This document shows, one piece after another, positions 12,691-32,561 of a DNA stretch of 64,000 nt. The DNA comes from a virus (taxonomy: Duplodnaviria; Caudoviricetes). A program made the position numbers and the translations under genes. The notes beneath the pieces were generated by a model. That model was not told where the DNA came from. It saw nothing but the letters and a program-made list of their open reading frames with translations, and did no database searches. Position 1 is the first letter of the stretch. Each line of letters begins with the position of its first letter. The DNA lies in the IMG/VR virus record IMGVR_UViG_3300029288_000145, positions 12,931 through 76,930 of that record; one strand, written 5' to 3'.

Positions 12691-13207
12691 ATCATCGCCC
12701 CGTAGATCGTCTTAAAATCGCTCATATCTGTTCATTATTTATCCATGTTCGCTTTAAACGAACACCGCCCAGGAGTGAACACGCTCCATAGGTACCACAA
12801 ACCGGTGCTGATCGCATTATTTTACCCCCATTTTGTCAGGTTTTTAACCCCATAAACTTGACTTTATACTAATTAAATGAAATTACTAACCCATTACCCC
12901 ACCGGTGAACGAACCGCATTTAAACACTCTAAACACATATTTTTTGACTCAAACCGAGCTGTGATTTTTTTAGCTATTTTATACCGCTCGGTTTTGTACA
13001 CGAAATCATAGGTACATATATCAGCCGAGGTTCAAAATAAAAATCCAAATTTGCTAACCCCACCGGCATGTAAATCAATAAGTTATGATGAGATACCAAA
13101 CATATAAAAGTAACTCCCTGATTATCAATTAATTAAAAGCAAATAATCTGCATACACGACGTTCATTCAATTAAAATTAGTTGCTTGATATTCAATTCAT
13201 TCTGTCT

Positions 13208-15769: not shown

Positions 15770-16753
15770 ATGGAAAAAATCAAAACGTACAAAGCATTTG
15801 ACAAAGAGCTTAAATGCCGTGATTTCCAATACGAAATTGGAAAAGAATACAAGCATAAAGGAAAGGTGGAAATATGTTCATCCGGTTTTCATTCATGCAT
15901 AAATCCCTTTGACTGCCTGAGTTATTACCCACTAATCGAAACACGATTTTGTGAATGTGAGGTATGGGGCAAGACTGACAAAAACAATGATGATAGTAAG
16001 GTGTCTAGCGAATTTATTCTGATTGTAAAGGAATTGTCGGAAAAAGAATTTAACCTCATTTGTGTAGATTTCTTAATAAAAGAATGTGAAGAAAAGCAGT
16101 CAGGAGACGACTCGCAGCAGTCACAGTCAGGATACGCCTCGAAGCAGTCACAGTCAGGATACCGCTCGCAGCAGTCACAGTCAGGAGACGACTCGCAGCA
16201 GTCACAGTCAGGAGACGACTCGCAGCAGTCACAGTCAGGAGACCGCTCGCAGCAGTCACAGTCAGGAGACCACTCGAAGCAGTCACAGTCAGGATACCGC
16301 TCGAAGCAGTCACAGTCAGGATACGCCTCGAAGCAGTCACAGTCAGGATACCGCTCGCAGCAGTCACAGTCAGGAGACGACTCGCAGCAGTCACAGTCAG
16401 GAGACCGCTCGCAGCAGTCACAGTCAGGAGACCACTCGAAGCAGTCACAGTCAGGATACCGCTCGAAGCAGTCACAGTCAGGATACCGCTCGAAGCAGTC
16501 ACAGTCAGGAGACGACTCGCAGCAGTGTTCTTGTGGTTATGATTCTGAAATAATTGCAACAGGAGAAAATAATGTCGCTGCCGCAATTGGTGAAAAATCC
16601 AAAATTAAAGGCATTATCGGCACCTGGATAACACTGGCAGAATATGACAACGATTCAAAATGTATCTGTGTAAAATCGGCCATCATTGATGGTAAAAAAC
16701 TTCTGCCCGATACATGGTACATTCTTAAAAACAAAAAATTCACTGCAATATGA
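15770..16753 (+). CDS. Repeat-containing phage protein (DUF7666-like N-terminus + 9-aa solenoid repeats)
   Basis: YKAFDKELKCRDFQYEIGKEY...GFHSC..P.D...YY N-terminus and W...AEYD...IDG..L.PDTWY.L C-terminus; family name recalled, not searched. Confidence 0.7.
   Translation: MEKIKTYKAFDKELKCRDFQYEIGKEYKHKGKVEICSSGFHSCINPFDCLSYYPLIETRFCECEVWGKTDKNNDDSKVSSEFILIVKELSEKEFNLICVDFLIKECEEKQSGDDSQQSQSGYASKQSQSGYRSQQSQSGDDSQQSQSGDDSQQSQSGDRSQQSQSGDHSKQSQSGYRSKQSQSGYASKQSQSGYRSQQSQSGDDSQQSQSGDRSQQSQSGDHSKQSQSGYRSKQSQSGYRSKQSQSGDDSQQCSCGYDSEIIATGENNVAAAIGEKSKIKGIIGTWITLAEYDNDSKCICVKSAIIDGKKLLPDTWYILKNKKFTAI
16097..16525 (+). repeat. 16 x 27-bp coding tandem repeat (QSG-xx-S-[Q/K]-QS)
   Basis: Invariant GCAGTCACAGTCAGGA plus variable GACGAC/TACGCC/TACCGC/GACCGC/GACCAC. 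Confidence 0.95.
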
Positions 16754-17022
16754 AAAAAACAATCACAAAATCAGACATCTTATACAAGATGTTTCAGCTA
16801 CAGGCAAAAAAAACGATTGAGGGAGAAAACCGGGCAATAGAATTTTGCCGGGCTTACTCAATCGAAACAGGGGTGCCATACCACCGGATAAAAAAGTATA
16901 TGGAGACCTATACAGGTAGCCCTGAGAAATTCCCTGGCTGGGTGCAGAAAATGGAAAGAAAACGCCTGATGAAGAGAAGGGCAGCAGCAAACACGGTCAC
17001 TATTTACGAAAAGCATAAATAA
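16750..17022 (+). CDS. Hypothetical basic protein
   Basis: 90-aa ORF with ATGA overlap. Confidence 0.55.
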   Translation: MKKTITKSDILYKMFQLQAKKTIEGENRAIEFCRAYSIETGVPYHRIKKYMETYTGSPEKFPGWVQKMERKRLMKRRAAANTVTIYEKHK

Positions 17023-17029
17023 CAAAGCT

Positions 17030-17326
17030 ATGAAACTGGAAGTATTTGAATTTTGGCATAACCAGAAAATAAAAGAATTTATTGTGGAATATTCCAAGGT
17101 GCCTGTAAAAACAGATGGCCGGGAATGTGAGGTGTCTCCGGGAGTTTATCAGTCAGAGGTATCCATTGATGGGATAAAAATGTACGTGAAACATGATGAT
17201 AATTTTGCCCTAGTTGAGTTTTCCAAGCATGATATTACCGCCATGTCATGCGCCATGAAGGAAATTCAGGAGGCAAAGGAATTGCAGACAATGAGTCAGG
17301 AAGAACTTAATGACTTCTACTCATGA
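17030..17326 (+). CDS. Hypothetical protein
   Basis: 98-aa ORF. Confidence 0.6.
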   Translation: MKLEVFEFWHNQKIKEFIVEYSKVPVKTDGRECEVSPGVYQSEVSIDGIKMYVKHDDNFALVEFSKHDITAMSCAMKEIQEAKELQTMSQEELNDFYS

Positions 17327-17709
17327 AACAGTTTGTTCCGATCACAACCATAAGCCGTGAAGCACGGTTTTTGGCGCATCCCTGGTGTTATATCCTGAAA
17401 GAAGGGTTTAATACTTATTTTGCCCTGGGAGTAAATTACCGAGAAACGGTTAAGGTTCCGTTTCTCAAAAAGCTAATTGATTCCGATATGATCATGCCGG
17501 GAGGTCATGACAAACATGGCCGGGAGATGTATGTTCGTGGTGTCACCAAGAAAAGCGAAGAGGAAATACGGGACAGTTCGCTGGCGTATGTTTTTCATCT
17601 GCTTTGCAAATATCCTACTATTGAAAAATGGGATTATCCGGGTGCATACTTGGCGGCAAAGAGTAGGCTGGCGGAGGTAGTAAACTCAATTAGACGTAAT
17701 GGTGGCTAA
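17323..17709 (+). CDS. Hypothetical protein
   Basis: 128-aa ORF; its TAA stop lies inside the GGCTAAC core of the following hairpin. Confidence 0.6.
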   Translation: MKQFVPITTISREARFLAHPWCYILKEGFNTYFALGVNYRETVKVPFLKKLIDSDMIMPGGHDKHGREMYVRGVTKKSEEEIRDSSLAYVFHLLCKYPTIEKWDYPGAYLAAKSRLAEVVNSIRRNGG

Positions 17710-17843
17710 CGGTACTTGTGTAAATTTCAGTGCCGTAAAATTAGTACAAACTTTAAATTGAAAATAAAATGAAAAATCAAGTAGAAAATTATCAACAAAG
17801 CACTGCACAGGCATTGAATTTACACAATGTTAGCAGTAGTGCC
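17704..17843. mobile_element. attC-like imperfect inverted repeat (cassette site 1)
   Basis: GGCTAAC-GGTAC-TTGTGTAAATTTCAGTGCC ... GGCATTGAATTTACACAA-T-GTTAGC; arms pair with one bulged base and one G-T. Confidence 0.65.
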
Positions 17844-18002
17844 AAAGGTGGACTTCGTAAAATTAAAGATGCAGAGCAACCTTGCCTACATCCTGAACAT
17901 AATCCACCGATGCACATTTATTTAACAGCAGGAACTTATGAATACACCTGCCCTTCTTGTGGCAAGGTTACGACATTCACAGTGCCATTGATTACGTTTT
18001 AG
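17769..18002 (+). CDS. Small putative Zn-binding protein (cassette gene 1)
   Basis: CLHPEHNPPMH...CPSCG; the start codon lies inside the hairpin loop. Confidence 0.65.
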   Translation: MKNQVENYQQSTAQALNLHNVSSSAKGGLRKIKDAEQPCLHPEHNPPMHIYLTAGTYEYTCPSCGKVTTFTVPLITF

Positions 18003-18018
18003 AGGCATTACTGCTAAC

Positions 18019-18093
18019 TAGTTGGTATAGTCACCTTCTAAATATAGTTGCGTGAATATCAGCAATGTAGTGTTATTTAGTCTAATTAAAATT
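18019..18093. other. Conserved tripartite site X1 (box A, 31-nt spacer with TGAnnnTCA, box B)
   Basis: TAGTTGGTATAGTCACCTTCTAAATA...TGAATATCA...TATTTAGTCTAATTAAAA; closely matches 32562-32636. Confidence 0.7.
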
Positions 18094-18436
18094 ACTTCTC
18101 AATAATGGTTATTTGATACAGGGCTTCAACGATCTTTTTTTTAATCCGAAACATAGCATAAGCGGAACCGGACTTCATTCCCTTAACATCCCAGACCTCC
18201 GTATGTCCATCGGCAAAAGTTATGAGGAAATCTGCCTTATAAAATCCACAGTTAATGTCATTTATTATTATGTCATACCTAGGCTGGCAAATGTATTCCG
18301 TAATAACCTTGCCTCGTTTAAGCAGTTCAAGTTGTGCCGCATAGTTAGCTTCCTTCTTAGAGTCATAAATACGTCCATTAAATTCCGTCCGTTTGGCGTG
18401 GAACTTATTTCTTTTTGTAAAAGGATGAGAAGTCAT
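18092..18436 (-). CDS. DUF1064-like PD-(D/E)XK nuclease (possible resolvase)
   Basis: NKFHAKRT...YDSKKEA.Y...YKADF...WDVKG. Confidence 0.8.
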   Translation of the reverse strand: MTSHPFTKRNKFHAKRTEFNGRIYDSKKEANYAAQLELLKRGKVITEYICQPRYDIIINDINCGFYKADFLITFADGHTEVWDVKGMKSGSAYAMFRIKKKIVEALYQITIIEK

Positions 18437-21400
18437 AACTATTATCGTTTGGTGCGGTCATTTGTTGCATGTATCTGTTATAAGCAGACTTGGCTCCCAG
18501 TAGTGCTGCCGATACTGCTGATACCAGGTCACAGTCCTTTAAATACTCAATACCCCTCATTCTCTTACACTCTTCTAAAAAGTCATCATGCTTTATCCGG
18601 GCGCTGTGATATTCGATATAATCACGCACAGAATTAAACCTGTCCTGGTTGGCGGCGGCACCTGCCCAGAAACCGGGTTTTTCAACAATCTTTCCAGTAA
18701 CATTATCAATGTCGTGTAATAAATATCCACCAAAGCCAAATTCAATAAAATCCCTCCAGAGTGTTTTGATATTGTTCTCCAAGTACATCATAGAGCCAAA
18801 GTACACACACATTTTTATCATGTCCCAGGAATATTCACTGCCGGCAGGTCGGTAACGATAGGTACATACGATATTATATGTCTCCCATTCTGATACCTCT
18901 TTGTTGTCCGGGTCAATATTCATATCTCTTAGACGAAGTACGGCACCACCACCATCGGACATTCTTTCACGAGATTCACGTAGCTGTGCCTCTGTCTTTG
19001 TTGAAAACTCAAAGGGGTCTCCACCGGCCACATACTTTCCGGGAAAGGCGGGATAGTAAATGCCATCTTTGAGAACTCTCTTACTCCTGATCTCTTCAGG
19101 TGGCATGTGTGAAAGCAAAAAGCGTCCATCGGGATTTTCTTTAAACACAACTTTGCCGGTTTGGTCTCCTCCCTCAAACTCGAAATTACCCCTTATCGGC
19201 TTATCCTTACCCGTCAGGCGATATAATTCTGCTAACTGGTCATTTATCTTGACTGTGTTAAATCCGATTGATGTGGAGGCTCCTTGGAAGCACTCGGCAT
19301 ATGTTGTTGGAAAGAGTTCAACAAACCTGTGATATTGCCTCATGGCTGTCGGCGTGCCTTTTGATAGCAATATCTGTCTCTGGGATGAAATAAAATCTTT
19401 GGCACCATAATTCTTTTTGATAAAGGCCGCCTGATCTGGAGTCGGATTGCTTATAACTGACAGTCCGTGCTTGTCTATAAACCCCTTCATACCGTCATAG
19501 GCAGGTATGAAAAGCGTTCTTAGTCCTGATGCTGTCTGCCCGGTAAGCTCGTTGATCTGCTCAAACCGGGACTGTTCACACAAACGCCTGAAGTTGGATA
19601 TTGTTACGGCATTAGCCTCCTCTACCGTTGTCGGGTGGATGCTGAAACCGACAATCTCATCTCCTATTGACTGACATTCTTTGACGACATTCCACCGGTC
19701 AAATATGTCCTCTTGACTTTCCCTGGTGTTATGAACAACGGTGTAATCTGACAATAAAAACCTTCTATTTCCATCAATAATAAAACCATAATAGTTGCCA
19801 ACACCCATTAATTCAACACGAAATCCAGTGTGTTTAGGGTTTCTGGAATTTTTGTTTTTATTTTCAATAATTGGCATTTTTTTTCGTGGAATGAGACAAT
19901 GTATTCTGTGCATATCAAATCCATAAATGCGTACTCGGTAAACGGGACAAGTATAAATTGGCTTGTTTGGCCTTTTTAGAGTGGCTATTTTTGCGTGAAT
20001 AGTACTACCAAACCCACAACTAAGTGCCAAATCTTTTACCTGTTCAGCTAATATTGGTAATTTTAGGGTTATTTCGTATACGCATTTATTTTTAGTGGTA
20101 CATCTGTGACCATCCGTGTCTATTATGCCAGCCAATAATTTAAGTCGATTGTCTATACTATCAACTAAATAATCTTTTATTATGTGTTTATTACGGATTA
20201 AATTATTACTACTTAAAAATCTTTGAATATAATTTATTTGGCGACCATGTGAAATAAATTTATATCCCTTATAGTATCCAACATACTTTGTATAATTTGA
20301 TATAAGATTCTCATTTAAACCAAGTTTGGTTGCAGCATCTTTTCTACTATGATACCGATTTATAAAATTATTATTTCTATCATAACAATCAAATATAGCG
20401 GTTCTTTTCTTCGATAACCGATAAGTTATTCCATCTTCTTTTATAACCACCTTATATCCACCCTCTTTTGCGTAGTTATAAATGTAATTTATTACTTCTT
20501 TATCCACATTAGTTATGGCTGGTTCAGCAGAAGCACCATCTCCTAGCCATAAACCATACAAATATGGGTCTATTATGTGTTGTTTTTCAGGATAATCTAC
20601 CCCAACACTATATAATACTAATCCACGCTTTTGATATTTTGACAATTTTAAATAATCTAATACGGTTAATTCTATTATTTGTCCTTTTTTATATTTATAA
20701 GAATAAAATTGAGATTCATCACTTATCTTACATACGAGAATATGATTACTATTACACACCCAAGGGTCGCCTTTATTTGGTATTATCTTATATAGATCGT
20801 CCTGTCCACATACGGTAGATAATACATTTCGTTCTATTGAATCATCTCCCATAAGCAAATCGCCAGGAAGAATGTCTTGAACCATTTTAACGTCTCCATT
20901 ATACATTCTTATAGGCGTATCCTTACCAAAACAGTTTCCTTCTTCATCACTCAGTATGTATTTTAGCTTTTTACCGTTATAATAAGACTTGTCAGAGGTC
21001 TGGGCGTAGTCGAATTTTGTTTTAAGTTCCTTCTTTTTATACAGGATAATCTTACCGTCCTTATTTCGTTCTGCCGGGGCGTTGCAGCTTATATTTTCCT
21101 TGGGATTGGTAGAACTATCCACCATTGGCTTAAAGTAAAACGGTATCTTCTGAAAGGCCGGAACAAGTTTATCGGAAAATTGTGTCTTGGCATTGGCAGA
21201 GGTGTAAGATTGTAGCCCTATAAGAGCTGCTATAGACCGGGTGCCGATCTCCAGACCTACAGATATTGACTTGTGCGTGGCACCATCCCTCCTGTGCTTG
21301 GGATAACAGAAGCCATAACATATCAACCTGCCGTAATCTTTAAGTTTTACGTCTCCATTATCATCTACAGCAACTTTTTTTGGCCGTCCCTTGTCGTCCC

Positions 21401-21926
21401 ATTCGGAATATACGGGTGCTTTTGTTGTTGTGGCACAATCCCTGGCAAAGAGGAACCACCGTCTGTCCCTATCCCTGTATTCGGCGGCACCTATATCCAG
21501 GTTGTAAACGGCTAAATACCAGTAATGCCAGCCATCCAGAAATGTTGGCTTGCCGTTATTAAAAAACCAGTATCCGTATAGCCTGTAATGCCATTGACGT
21601 TTTATCCATAATATCTCATCCTTATAATATTTCTGCCGGGCTTGCAGTTCGTTCCACACATCATCGGCAAAGGTATGTTTGTCAATAAGTTTGAGTATCT
21701 TTTTTGGTGTCGGTGGAATACGCCAGTATTGTTCATCACAGGGTTCGCCAAATCCATCTATAAGATGCCATACAGGAGGTTCCGGCAGGTTTATACGCTG
21801 GGCGGTTAAGTCCGGGTCATTGTCATTAATGTAAAAATGGGTGTCGGCATCCTTGTAGGTAATGAGAATATCCGGCTTTATAAGGGGTGAACTCTTATAA
21901 TATTCAAGTGCCTGTAGTCTCTTCAT
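18405..21926 (-). CDS. terL: Terminase large subunit containing an intein
   Basis: PKHRRDGAT Walker A-like motif, YILSDEEG Walker B, C-terminal nuclease motifs AGGDP and D.VSA; 402-aa intein inserted. Confidence 0.85.
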   Translation of the reverse strand: MKRLQALEYYKSSPLIKPDILITYKDADTHFYINDNDPDLTAQRINLPEPPVWHLIDGFGEPCDEQYWRIPPTPKKILKLIDKHTFADDVWNELQARQKYYKDEILWIKRQWHYRLYGYWFFNNGKPTFLDGWHYWYLAVYNLDIGAAEYRDRDRRWFLFARDCATTTKAPVYSEWDDKGRPKKVAVDDNGDVKLKDYGRLICYGFCYPKHRRDGATHKSISVGLEIGTRSIAALIGLQSYTSANAKTQFSDKLVPAFQKIPFYFKPMVDSSTNPKENISCNAPAERNKDGKIILYKKKELKTKFDYAQTSDKSYYNGKKLKYILSDEEGNCFGKDTPIRMYNGDVKMVQDILPGDLLMGDDSIERNVLSTVCGQDDLYKIIPNKGDPWVCNSNHILVCKISDESQFYSYKYKKGQIIELTVLDYLKLSKYQKRGLVLYSVGVDYPEKQHIIDPYLYGLWLGDGASAEPAITNVDKEVINYIYNYAKEGGYKVVIKEDGITYRLSKKRTAIFDCYDRNNNFINRYHSRKDAATKLGLNENLISNYTKYVGYYKGYKFISHGRQINYIQRFLSSNNLIRNKHIIKDYLVDSIDNRLKLLAGIIDTDGHRCTTKNKCVYEITLKLPILAEQVKDLALSCGFGSTIHAKIATLKRPNKPIYTCPVYRVRIYGFDMHRIHCLIPRKKMPIIENKNKNSRNPKHTGFRVELMGVGNYYGFIIDGNRRFLLSDYTVVHNTRESQEDIFDRWNVVKECQSIGDEIVGFSIHPTTVEEANAVTISNFRRLCEQSRFEQINELTGQTASGLRTLFIPAYDGMKGFIDKHGLSVISNPTPDQAAFIKKNYGAKDFISSQRQILLSKGTPTAMRQYHRFVELFPTTYAECFQGASTSIGFNTVKINDQLAELYRLTGKDKPIRGNFEFEGGDQTGKVVFKENPDGRFLLSHMPPEEIRSKRVLKDGIYYPAFPGKYVAGGDPFEFSTKTEAQLRESRERMSDGGGAVLRLRDMNIDPDNKEVSEWETYNIVCTYRYRPAGSEYSWDMIKMCVYFGSMMYLENNIKTLWRDFIEFGFGGYLLHDIDNVTGKIVEKPGFWAGAAANQDRFNSVRDYIEYHSARIKHDDFLEECKRMRGIEYLKDCDLVSAVSAALLGAKSAYNRYMQQMTAPNDNSYDFSSFYKKK
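19728..20933 (-). mobile_element. Intein (Hom_end/PI-SceI-like HINT) with LAGLIDADG homing endonuclease
   Basis: N-junction N|CFGKDT, block B CNSNHIL, LYGLWLGDG, LLAGIIDTDG, C-junction VVHN|T; 1206 nt and noticeably more AT-rich than the flanks. Confidence 0.93.
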
Positions 21927-24804: not shown

Positions 24805-25120
24805 GGAGTTGTTTAAGAAGATTGAGGCCGAACCTCATCGTGCATTTACGTATATAATGTCAATATTTGACGGTATATACAATGATATGATGGAAGCCTG
24901 TGGCCGGGAGGAGAATCCAAATGCAGTCATGGAAATCGTAAATATGCACAATAAGAAATACAAAAGAATCTCAGTGGCAATAAACAAACATATTGAACAA
25001 CGCTATGGTATAAAGAATTTACTCCGTAGTGAGGCGTTCCTGGACACTATAAAGTCCAATATTTTAATGGACAAACAAGCGTTCCATGTGTATAACTGCT
25101 ACTGGGGATTATCGAACTAA
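24791..25120 (+). CDS. Hypothetical protein
   Basis: 109-aa ORF. Confidence 0.55.
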   Translation: MRKYKELFKKIEAEPHRAFTYIMSIFDGIYNDMMEACGREENPNAVMEIVNMHNKKYKRISVAINKHIEQRYGIKNLLRSEAFLDTIKSNILMDKQAFHVYNCYWGLSN

Positions 25121-25121
25121 T

Positions 25122-25874
25122 ATGGAAGATCAAAAGAAGTATGTAGGGTACATCCGTGTATCAACAAAAAAACAGGGTGACAGTGGTGCCGGACTTGAAA
25201 GCCAGGAGGCTATTATTAAGGCTAAGGCCGGGGATAACCTGGTGAAAATATTTCGAGAGATCGAATCCACACGCAAGAGCAACAAGCGGTTTGAATTTTA
25301 CAAGGCACTCAATATGTGTGTTGAAAACGGCTATGTACTTTGCATAGCCAAGATTGACCGTGCTATACGTGATATGGACTTGCTTATGTCTCTGGAGAAG
25401 GCGGTATCTGCCGGCAACCTCGAATTTTTTATCTGCAACCGACCCTGGGCAGATAAATATACTATCAGAAATGACGTGAATAATGCCGAGCAGGAACGCC
25501 AGTGGATTTCTGAACGTACCAAGGCCGGGCTTGCTGTGGTTAAACTCAGGGGAACTAAAACCGGAAAGCCATATATGCCTCCGAGGGGATTTCGTGAGGA
25601 CAGAGCACGTCTTGAACGGGCTATTATTGCCAGCAGGGAGGCTAAGACAATTAAGAGACTGTGCCATCCGGAAATGATCAAGAGCCGTGCATTTATGATG
25701 GAACTACATAACTCCGGAAAGAGTGGGTGGGCTATTGCCAATGAACTTAATAAGAATGGGTTTAAAACCTCCACCGGCGGCCAGTGGCGACAGGGTTCTG
25801 TCTATACCACACTACAATTACCCTTTGATGAGGGTATTGTAGAAAAATATAGGGACGTTTACCAATGGCTATAA
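25122..25874 (+). CDS. Small serine recombinase (resolvase/invertase family)
   Basis: YVGYIRVSTKKQ (catalytic Ser), GLESQ, IAKIDRAIR, ERQWISERTKAGL, C-terminal IANELNKNGFKT..GGQW; start moved to MEDQKK. Confidence 0.9.
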   Translation: MEDQKKYVGYIRVSTKKQGDSGAGLESQEAIIKAKAGDNLVKIFREIESTRKSNKRFEFYKALNMCVENGYVLCIAKIDRAIRDMDLLMSLEKAVSAGNLEFFICNRPWADKYTIRNDVNNAEQERQWISERTKAGLAVVKLRGTKTGKPYMPPRGFREDRARLERAIIASREAKTIKRLCHPEMIKSRAFMMELHNSGKSGWAIANELNKNGFKTSTGGQWRQGSVYTTLQLPFDEGIVEKYRDVYQWL

Positions 25875-32032: not shown

Positions 32033-32128
32033 ATGGGTGTTTACAGATGGTGCGAAACCGGCGATTGGTTGCTATGTGGAAAAGTGAAACAAGGAATAGA
32101 CGGTGAATTTATTGAGTGGTTCACTTAA
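32033..32128 (+). CDS. 31-aa peptide (not in ORF track)
   Basis: MGVYRWCETGDWLLCGKVKQGIDGEFIEWFT after an A-rich leader. Confidence 0.4.
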   Translation: MGVYRWCETGDWLLCGKVKQGIDGEFIEWFT

Positions 32129-32132
32129 TGGT

Positions 32133-32225
32133 ACATAACGGTTGAGGCTAAAAGCAGTTGCCTTGAATACTGCTTGAAATTACGCACAGACTATCTAGCA
32201 ATTGCTTTTAGCCTGTGTTATAAAC
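32133..32225. mobile_element. attC-like imperfect inverted repeat (cassette site 2)
   Basis: ACATAAC-GGTTG-AGGCTAAAAGCAGTTGC ... GCAATTGCTTTTAGCCT-GT-GTTATAAAC; arms 16/17 complementary. Confidence 0.65.
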
Positions 32226-32235
32226 TGTAAAAATT

Positions 32236-32544
32236 ATGGGCGAATATGCAGATATGGCAATAGAAAGTGGTTTGTCAAATTATATTGACTTTAAAACCCA
32301 TAGCGGAATTTATGAGAATGATGATTATTTAGACGAGTGGGAGGGTGAAGACATACCATTCATTCGTGCTGAAAAGTGGGATAGTTTTGGATTCCTTGAA
32401 ATAAAAAGAGAAACAAAAAAGGCTTGGTTACTCATAATGAATGGTAAGGCTGAGCGTTGGTTTCCAAAAAAGCATTGTAAGATTAAAGGCAATATAATTT
32501 TACTTCCAATATGGCTACGCAATAAAATGGCAGGATGGGAATAA
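32236..32544 (+). CDS. Hypothetical protein (cassette gene 2)
   Basis: MGEYADMAIE... N-terminus; KRETKKAWLL...ERWFPK small beta-barrel-like segment. Confidence 0.65.
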   Translation: MGEYADMAIESGLSNYIDFKTHSGIYENDDYLDEWEGEDIPFIRAEKWDSFGFLEIKRETKKAWLLIMNGKAERWFPKKHCKIKGNIILLPIWLRNKMAGWE

Positions 32545-32561
32545 TTTTTATTGTTTATAAC

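Follow-up and report, generated by a model that had tools for sequence, protein, structure and literature searches.

Integrons are regarded as a bacterial device that needs a specialised integrase; integrons themselves, the clusters of attC sites lacking an integrase (CALINs) and the replicative resolution of a single-strand exchange are well established. Here we analyse a one-gene unit (from here: cassette 1) in a virus of the class Caudoviricetes and compare it with these and other described systems. The DNA studied, called the window throughout, is the whole stretch of 64,000 nucleotides corresponding to positions 12,931 to 76,930 of the IMG/VR record IMGVR_UViG_3300029288_000145. Positions 17710-18017 of the window most probably constitute a mobile cassette of an integron-like site-specific recombination system that is common to the Flavobacteriaceae and their phages.

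Folded single strands are also the substrate of the integrative mobile elements exploiting Xer (IMEX) of the CTX type. There, XerCD acts on the folded single-stranded attP, the enzyme is supplied by the host, and the exchange of one strand is resolved by replication. Among phages, 17 small CALINs were described by Qi et al. (2023; PMC9892861), and some phage attC sites were recombined by IntI1. In the same study, sites and accessory genes including DNA methyltransferases were found in virulent phages without an integrase; one of the phages, Polaribacter phage P12002L, has a host from the Bacteroidota. The IntegronFinder 2.0 survey found the Bacteroidetes almost devoid of integrons. In gut Bacteroidales, Ross et al. 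(2019; bioRxiv 10.1101/471110) reported rAID-1, in which a tyrosine recombinase of the XerD family heads a co-directional array with intergenic repeats "reminiscent of integrons". It is defined by a 5′ recombinase at least 44% identical to BF9343_RS08045 of B. fragilis, at least two co-directional downstream genes of low GC content, and immunity cargo (10.1101/471110). Full-text literature searches yielded no description of the Flavobacteriaceae/phage system considered here.

The likeness to integrons comprises one-gene cassettes, sites that fold as imperfect palindromes and have AAC/GTT cores, an R and an L stem, one extrahelical base and a loop that varies, cassette ends that are complementary to each other, and co-oriented arrays with an attI-like site and a tyrosine recombinase at their end; likewise, the crossover would lie at AA|C of the folding strand. 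Nevertheless, the system departs from classical integrons in its enzyme, site geometry, orientation in phages and dispersed landing pads. The recombinase has no IntI-specific insert and does not reach the cut-offs for integron integrases, the spacer is a one-sided bulge, and the marks that distinguish the strands include conserved G.T pairs. In phages the open reading frame (ORF) is carried by the folding strand, with its start codon in the loop, as in a mirror image, and this phage record has four dispersed pads with a single cassette each and no tyrosine recombinase.

Structure of cassette 1 and its occurrence in unrelated phages

The features of cassette 1 and of the phage DNA on either side are the following (window coordinates):

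17699-17709, plus strand: left half of the landing pad, ATGGTGGCTAA, including the TAA stop codon (17707-17709) of the resident ORF 17323-17709
17710-18017, plus strand: cassette 1, the mobile unit of 308 bp, as given by the homology limits against unrelated flanks
17710-17715, plus strand: unpaired spacer, C followed by GGTAC, a bulge on the 5′ side only according to two site alignments
17716-17734, plus strand: 5′ arm of the L stem, 19 nt, with one extrahelical T and one G.T pair
17735-17809, plus strand: variable loop of 75 nt with a conserved AAACTTTAAATT motif, an A-rich leader and the start codon (17769)
17769-18002, plus strand: cargo ORF of 77 aa with its ATG in the hairpin loop, Zn-ribbon-like, PHROG 28447
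17810-17827, plus strand: 3′ arm of the L stem, 18 nt, translated within the N-terminal leader
17829-17843, plus strand: inner R box GTTAGCAGTAGTGCC, pairing partner of the terminal box of the same cassette, translated as Val-Ser-Ser-Ser
18004-18017, plus strand: terminal R box GGCATTACTGCTAA, complementary to 17830-17843
18018-18100, plus strand: right half of the landing pad, attI-like, C TAGTTGGTAT..TTCTAAATA..TATTTAGTCTAATTAAAA, owned by the phage and not by the cassette

An earlier reading of the window from its letters alone (the original prediction) had described an attC-like hairpin, boxes complementary at 14 of 15 positions and a small gene, all of which we found where it had placed them. 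The two arms of the L stem form 18 pairs, 17 of them Watson-Crick and one G.T, with one bulged T, and a single T separates the 3′ arm from the inner R box. The cores are GCTAAC at 17705-17710, with GGTAC next, and GTTAGC at 17829-17834. Outside the hairpin, the inner box (17829-17843) is paired with GGCATTACTGCTAAC (18004-18018) in an outer inverted repeat, the odd position out being a G.T on the plus strand. The site had been called non-canonical, and it is so in two respects: the spacer measures 4-5 nt on the 5′ side against 0-1 nt on the 3′ side in all aligned sites, and the hairpin lies 5′ of the gene and holds its ATG.

A lone 14/15 repeat is possible by chance in 64 kb; a pattern search for a single outer repeat with at most three mismatches returned 2 matches where 0.8 would be expected. 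Chance does not account for the composite structure, because a covariance model, the folding energy of the junction and the exact homology limits all single it out. The covariance model (R1), built from 28 sites and of the custom kind that had been proposed as a check, matched the window only at 17699-17840 (72.1 bits, E 3.5e-15) and at 32128-32228 (62 bits, E 1.3e-12) and gave no match in the control loci. Both window sites thereby belong to the structured-site family of Flavobacteriaceae and phages that R1 describes (AAC...GTT cores, 5′ bulge, L stem). For the reconstituted circular junction of cassette 1, folding with DNA parameters gave the predicted structure at −25.7 kcal/mol, compared with −9.2 ± 2.7 kcal/mol for shuffled sequences; the plus strand of the junction is 2.5 kcal/mol more stable than its minus strand.

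The cargo ORF runs through the 3′ arm and the inner box before it reaches the zinc-binding domain. Its product thus consists of a family-specific leader of 28 aa and a Zn-ribbon-like domain, C-x-HPEHNPP-x-H ... CPxCG. The matching PHROG 28447 is annotated as function unknown, the zinc-ribbon matches in Pfam are all sub-threshold, and the sequences in the PDB gave weak zinc-finger matches. The cargo is a small zinc-binding protein, probably with a role in host takeover or an accessory role.

Four IMG/VR contigs (L001-L004) encode the cargo protein at 99% identity. In BLASTN comparisons their homology to the window was confined to 17698/17705-18018, at 96-97% identity, with nothing else in common in 8 kb, and in the alignment, sequence beyond the left-hand ...(G/C)TAAC and the right-hand ...CTGCTAAC is at once unrelated. 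Altogether, copies of cassette 1 that are 95-100% identical occur in these contigs, in L023-L026, L040 and L050, and in a contig of the unrelated sequencing run X3. At least nine different flanks are represented, and on both sides the homology breaks precisely at ...TAA|C. The copy in the metagenome contig L023 is 100% identical over exactly 17705-18018; in the metagenome contigs L025, L040 and L050 the neighbours of the cassette differ in each case, and in the X3 contig its left flank is new and its right flank is a variant of the one in the window. These contexts amount to comparative proof that a one-gene cassette with a folded site has moved among many unrelated phages with ends exact to the base. 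The original prediction had given the unit as 17711-18018 with a crossover in AAC, in agreement with these limits, and would have counted as refuted if relatives had no empty or alternatively filled alleles and the unit were never met elsewhere with the same AAC boundaries; the unit does recur, with identical ends, in at least nine contexts.

Most differences between the copies are synonymous or lie in the loop (against L001, four synonymous changes and one Glu/Asp exchange), and the cargo gene is therefore under purifying selection. One copy, L026:2767-3078, is decaying: replacement of its 5′ arm has abolished the stem, it terminates in CTAA|T, and Arg stands in place of the first Cys of CPxC. 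The same variant was found in two more runs, from groundwater and landfill. Where the zinc-binding domain has more distant homologues, these are normal phage genes without leader, hairpin or boxes. In the 31-kb phage to which L001 belongs (G003), a GIY-YIG-type homing endonuclease-like ORF was noted by eye two genes upstream of the cassette (L001:3365-3700, plus strand).

BLASTN with window positions 16700-19000 gave no match among GenBank phages. The resident upstream gene of 128 aa has no relatives in IMG/VR, hence there is no sister phage for an empty-site comparison, and the relatives of the neighbouring DUF1064 gene, at only 35-58% identity, are too distant for comparing the junction. The contig pair L017 and L020 was considered as a filled and an empty form and set aside, as their downstream genes simply differ and the comparison is not clean. 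The predicted empty site, or an alternatively filled one, was not seen in the contigs of four runs: comparison with 17000-18800 gave no such joints, in contigs that are silent on rare forms.

Precise ends beside a tetranucleotide might also be produced by a non-autonomous single-strand element of the IS200/IS605 kind, inserted 3′ of TAAC by a Y1 HUH transposase acting in trans. Such an element would explain site-specific insertion without target duplication, a subterminal hairpin with a bulged T, and the same tetranucleotide at the right end. We consider it highly improbable. IS200/IS605 elements have two subterminal hairpins and a 4-nt guide, whereas each unit here has one hairpin and a complementarity of 12-15 bp between the internal box and the far end, which is foreign to that mechanism. 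Moreover, the arrays described below are tied to a tyrosine recombinase of the Xer/IntI kind, and no Y1_Tnp gene (PF01797) is present in the genomes G001-G004, to which this search was confined, without G000, the record of the window itself.

The site family, its arrays and the array-linked recombinase

A scanner for the site pattern (outer box ...TAAC, spacer of 4-5 nt, stem of at least 10 bp, loop, return stem, 0-1 nt, GTTA...) found sites arranged head to tail in phage contigs, all of them on the ORF strand. The largest group consists of 14 co-oriented sites in a jumbo-phage contig (L019/L024), represented by fragments of 29-43 kb that are an estimated 10-15% complete; two 31-kb phages that are 98-100% complete have three to five sites, and further sites occur in L023, L025, L028 and L040. 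In the alignment of phage sites, 92.8% of the L-stem cells are paired, 13 of the 14 L-stem pairs show compensatory changes, and covariation reaches 0.514, compared with 0.139 after shuffling and at most 0.09 after sliding. The corresponding alignment of bacterial sites is 96.1% paired with a covariation of 0.498 against 0.131, and it has two conserved G.T pairs on the same strand. Rfam gave only chance-level matches to the sites. A dif-like duplex reading (box, 6 nt, L arm) was dropped, the second arm not being conserved in sequence.

The boxes follow a chain rule. Of 8 variable positions, 7.07 on average are complementary between the inner box of site k and the outer box of the next site, k+1, compared with 4.2-4.3 for boxes of the same site or random pairs, and a T.G wobble is conserved in 24 of 27 inner-outer box pairs. 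The variable box triplets thus co-vary per cassette and not per physical site, and therefore a circular intermediate is needed; we read this pairing as the integron signature of units that were once circular. It goes together with the TAA|C limits in at least nine contexts.

In L019, the first outer box (L019:1050-1061) is complementary to the last inner box (L019:6668-6679); the two bound the array of 14 sites and are identical to the R box of cassette 1 (ATTACTGCTAAC / GTTAGCAGTAGT). This arrangement suggests that cassettes were inserted one by one within a single resident site of that type. One of its cassettes, L024:10327-10635 (= L019:6319-6626), carries unrelated cargo, has the loop motif TAGTATAAACTTTAAATTAA..ATAAAATGAA in common with cassette 1, and has its inner box translated in the same frame, as Val-Ser-Gly-Ser. 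Since loop motif and frame are shared and the cargo is not, it seems that one hairpin module with its leader serves more than one cassette.

L019/L024 would qualify structurally as a CALIN if its sites were accepted as attC. As in the phage CALINs of Qi et al., cassette-type sites and accessory genes occur in phages without an integrase. Those CALINs have 2-4 sites, were detected with IntegronFinder/HattCI and are recombined by IntI1, whereas the sites here are linked to a Xer-like enzyme, form mirrored arrays of up to 14, and include one cassette traced through at least nine contexts. The window itself does not have the layout of a CALIN (at least two attC within about 4 kb and no integrase): its two sites are 14.4 kb apart, one per pad.

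Model R1 also recovers the 14-site array of L019/L024. In bacteria, it found four sites in a metagenome-assembled genome of Flavobacterium. Among 151 Flavobacteriaceae genomes, 126 contain sites, more than 1100 in total, which frequently form clusters and frequently sit at the ends of contigs. Three Flavobacteriaceae chromosomes inspected closely have 11-19 co-oriented sites per 16-20 kb. In one bacterial array inspected for pairing (G121), the chain rule holds at all junctions but one, a stretch of about 1.9 kb in which a site may have been missed. The proposed link to the Bacteroidota is therefore borne out by the site family. Cassette 1 itself is not in the sampled bacterial genomes; a search of the genome collection with the cargo protein returned two distant relatives only.

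In three bacterial genomes the best match to the integron integrase model TIGR02249 is a tyrosine recombinase of 375-401 aa located at the end of the array. Its scores against family models are:

XerA/"integron integrase" (NF040815): 202-211 bits, cut-off 220
integron integrase (TIGR02249): 186-192 bits, cut-off 265
XerC / XerD: 161-176 bits, cut-off about 330

The TIGR02249 match to the array-linked recombinases falls into two stretches and skips model positions 180-238, the IntI-specific segment. The nearest solved structures are XerA, then IntI4, then XerD. With an alignment of five host recombinases as the query, at least 406 relatives were found in IMG/VR. Phage recombinases have the same family profile as the host enzymes and score 150-153 bits against TIGR02249 (cut-off 265). 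The best 80 of the at least 406 viral loci contain 250 model sites in about 50 loci, and all 250 share the strand of the recombinase gene and are located upstream of it. At six of seven viral loci examined, the last box is followed by C TA(T/G)(T/A)ATATA... and, within about 60 nt, by a recombinase of 266-269 aa. By these profile matches the array recombinase, in bacteria and in many phage contigs, is classified as a Xer/IntI-like tyrosine recombinase without the IntI-specific insert. The layout of the Flavobacteriaceae arrays, with a recombinase at the array end and co-directional genes, follows the published description of rAID-1; phage-borne mirror cassettes and landing pads are outside that description.

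These results bear on the reading of cassette 1 as a classical integron cassette, with a true attC for IntI and the window as a solo attC or CALIN-type remnant. The AAC/GTT cores, R and L boxes, extrahelical base, variable loop (here about 10-180 nt) and chain rule all agree with it, and published phage attC sites do recombine with IntI1 (PMC9892861). Yet every array-end recombinase found lacks the IntI-specific segment and stays under the TIGR02249 and NF011946 cut-offs, and neither the phage record nor the array-linked enzymes offer an integrase with the IntI-specific domain beside an array. The central spacer is a one-sided bulge of 4-5 nt, unlike the two-sided unpaired spacer of attC, and the site family is widespread in the Flavobacteriaceae although the Bacteroidetes are nearly integron-free in IntegronFinder surveys. 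We therefore regard a classical integron cassette as unlikely and favour the related system with its own Xer-like enzyme.

The original prediction had noted the absence of a tyrosine recombinase from the window; none (PF00589) is encoded in the whole 76.9-kb record. Array-family recombinases are also absent from G001-G004, including two cassette-bearing phages that are 98-100% complete. As none was found in either, the simplest reading is that the recombinase for this phage acts in trans. An integrase supplied in trans had been proposed, and an array-linked enzyme of Xer/IntI-like type exists in hosts and in other phages; the term integrase has to give way to a Xer-like recombinase without the IntI-specific domain. 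With this change, the model of the original prediction is essentially right.

The record does encode a serine recombinase of 262 aa (window 25086-25874, plus strand) with a Resolvase domain and part of a "Recombinase" domain. No other recombinase was found in this record, and this enzyme could be suspected of moving the cassettes itself. Serine recombinases act on duplex sites with a 2-bp overlap and not on folded single strands, this one is absent from G001-G004 with their two nearly or fully complete cassette-bearing phages, and arrays elsewhere are tied to the tyrosine recombinase, which leaves it a most improbable agent.

Orientation and folding strand

In phage cassettes the ORF is on the folding strand, the site lies 5′ of the ORF, and the start codon is inside the hairpin loop. 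In the bacterial arrays 48 of 49 ORFs are opposite the folding strand, each ORF is followed by its site, and recombinase and ORFs are co-directional. The order of an integron, an ORF on the top strand and then its attC, is thus found in the bacterial arrays and not in the phages. Judged by gene order, the phage arrays are mirror images of the bacterial ones, arranged site-then-ORF and reading towards the attI-like site and the recombinase. In integron terms, the strand of cassette 1 that folds, the "bottom" strand, is the plus strand of the window; read on the minus strand, the cassette has the canonical form, but its ORF is inverted.

This orientation is relevant to the possibility that no dedicated system exists. 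The unit would then be a phage moron, swapped by homologous or illegitimate recombination at short conserved boundaries, and the hairpins would act in RNA, for instance as terminators, RNase sites or controls of translation. A start codon enclosed by a hairpin on the mRNA strand is in keeping with this, as are G.T pairs that would be G.U in RNA, and some cassette-bearing phages have ORFs that look by eye like Erf/RecT-type annealing proteins and exonucleases (no family search was run). However, the G.T asymmetry is the same whether the folding strand is sense, as in phages, or antisense to the genes, as in bacteria, and the fold is therefore a feature of the DNA and not of the mRNA. Furthermore, the variable box triplets co-vary per cassette, a pattern requiring a circular intermediate, the hairpins match no Rfam family, and array position and polarity relative to the recombinase are strict in 250 of 250 cases. 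An exchange of morons with RNA hairpins is very unlikely in view of these points, and a site-specific system remains the preferred reading.

Landing pads, proposed mechanism and implications

The 80-85 bp after cassette 1 and after a second cassette in the window are homologous. With the first 13 kb of the genome, which precede the window, added to the comparison, four homologous pads were found in the phage genome, each with one cassette, the two cassettes in the first 13 kb being on the minus strand. Besides cassette 1 these are:

32139-32560, plus strand: cassette 2, with a site of 85 nt (32136-32220), an ORF at 32236-32544 and the terminal box ATTGTTTATAA
32561-32645, plus strand: landing pad of cassette 2
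L054:7046-8072 (genome positions before the window), minus strand: cassette of 1026 bp with a PAPS-reductase-like gene (phrog_424)
L054:11632-12366 (before the window), minus strand: cassette of 734 bp with a C5 cytosine DNA methyltransferase of 240 aa, the Pfam model being matched over the first third only

The left halves of the four pads are alike (GGTxxxxTAAC). On the right, the pad core AAC|TAG(Y)T..TAT resembles the sequences next to the recombinase genes, AAC|TAGTTTATAT and AAC|TGGTTATAT in bacteria and AAC|TA(T/G)TATATA in phages, a core likeness that is only suggestive of an attI-like pad. A scan of IMG/VR with the pad pattern gave no match. A DUF1064 gene (18092-18436, minus strand; the annotation of PHROG 190 is Holliday junction resolvase) converges on the pad of cassette 1; since the neighbours of the other pads differ, its position there is probably a coincidence. 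Beside it lies an ORF of 1173 aa (18405-21926, minus strand) that is interrupted by an intein with a Hint domain (residues 332-428) and a LAGLIDADG homing-endonuclease domain (about residues 587-669). Upstream of cassette 1, 15770-16753 (plus strand) encodes a protein of 327 aa with an N-terminal DUF7666 domain followed by about 20 tandem SQSG(D/Y)(D/R/H/A)S(Q/K)Q repeats.

We propose the following course of events. In the circular form of the cassette the two ends would be joined, giving one folded site on the plus strand of the window: a 15-bp R stem formed by the terminal and the inner box, the one-sided bulge of 5 nt, and an 18-bp L stem with its extrahelical T and G.T pair, closed by the loop of 75 nt. 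This folded single strand would be bound by a Xer/IntI-like tyrosine recombinase, whose cut would separate the A from the C in ...TAA|C. With the hairpin at the 5′ end of the unit and ...TAA at its terminus, the crossover would fall in the TAA|C of the outer box on the plus strand, between A17709 and C17710, a position that can be resolved no finer than TAAC. The cut strand would be exchanged with the same triplet of the attI-like landing pad, and replication would resolve the product, as in integrons. The enzyme could come from a host with an array-linked recombinase or from a co-infecting phage with the 267-aa version. In CTX-type IMEX, too, a Xer-family enzyme acts on a single-stranded hairpin, but there whole phage genomes integrate at dif, in contrast to one-gene cassettes in arrays.

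Several points weigh against this reading. What comparison establishes is the structure, the place of the site in its family, movement with exact ends, the tie between arrays and recombinase, and the mirror orientation, while the single-strand mechanism, the exact cut and the supply in trans are inferred. The position of the cut rests on analogy and on one degenerate copy (L026, ...CTAA|T). The 76.9-kb record without an array-family recombinase is 66% complete, so that a copy encoded by the phage is possible. The likeness between the pad and the recombinase-adjacent attI is short (CTAG, 1-4 nt, TAT), and neither an empty pad, nor a different occupant in this exact pad, nor a junction of a circle was seen.

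Beyond cassette 1 itself, the mirror orientation and the dispersed pads raise the idea of a phage-adapted, mirror-image version of the system. Hairpin-start cassettes would circulate among unrelated phages, from 31-kb to jumbo genomes, and some phages, including this one, would keep dispersed attI-like pads without a recombinase of their own and borrow the Xer-like enzyme from the host or a co-infecting phage. We regard this wider scheme as evenly balanced between right and wrong.

The sites of cassette 1 belong to a family that fills chromosomal arrays in most of the sampled Flavobacteriaceae and is tied to a simpler, Xer-like recombinase. If this reading is true, the IntI-specific domain would not be required for the recombination of folded sites, and compact portable att sites with small recombinases would become available as tools for testing. 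It would also mean that lytic phages and their hosts are joined by a common currency of gene exchange, whose cargos here include a C5 DNA methyltransferase and a PAPS-reductase-like gene.

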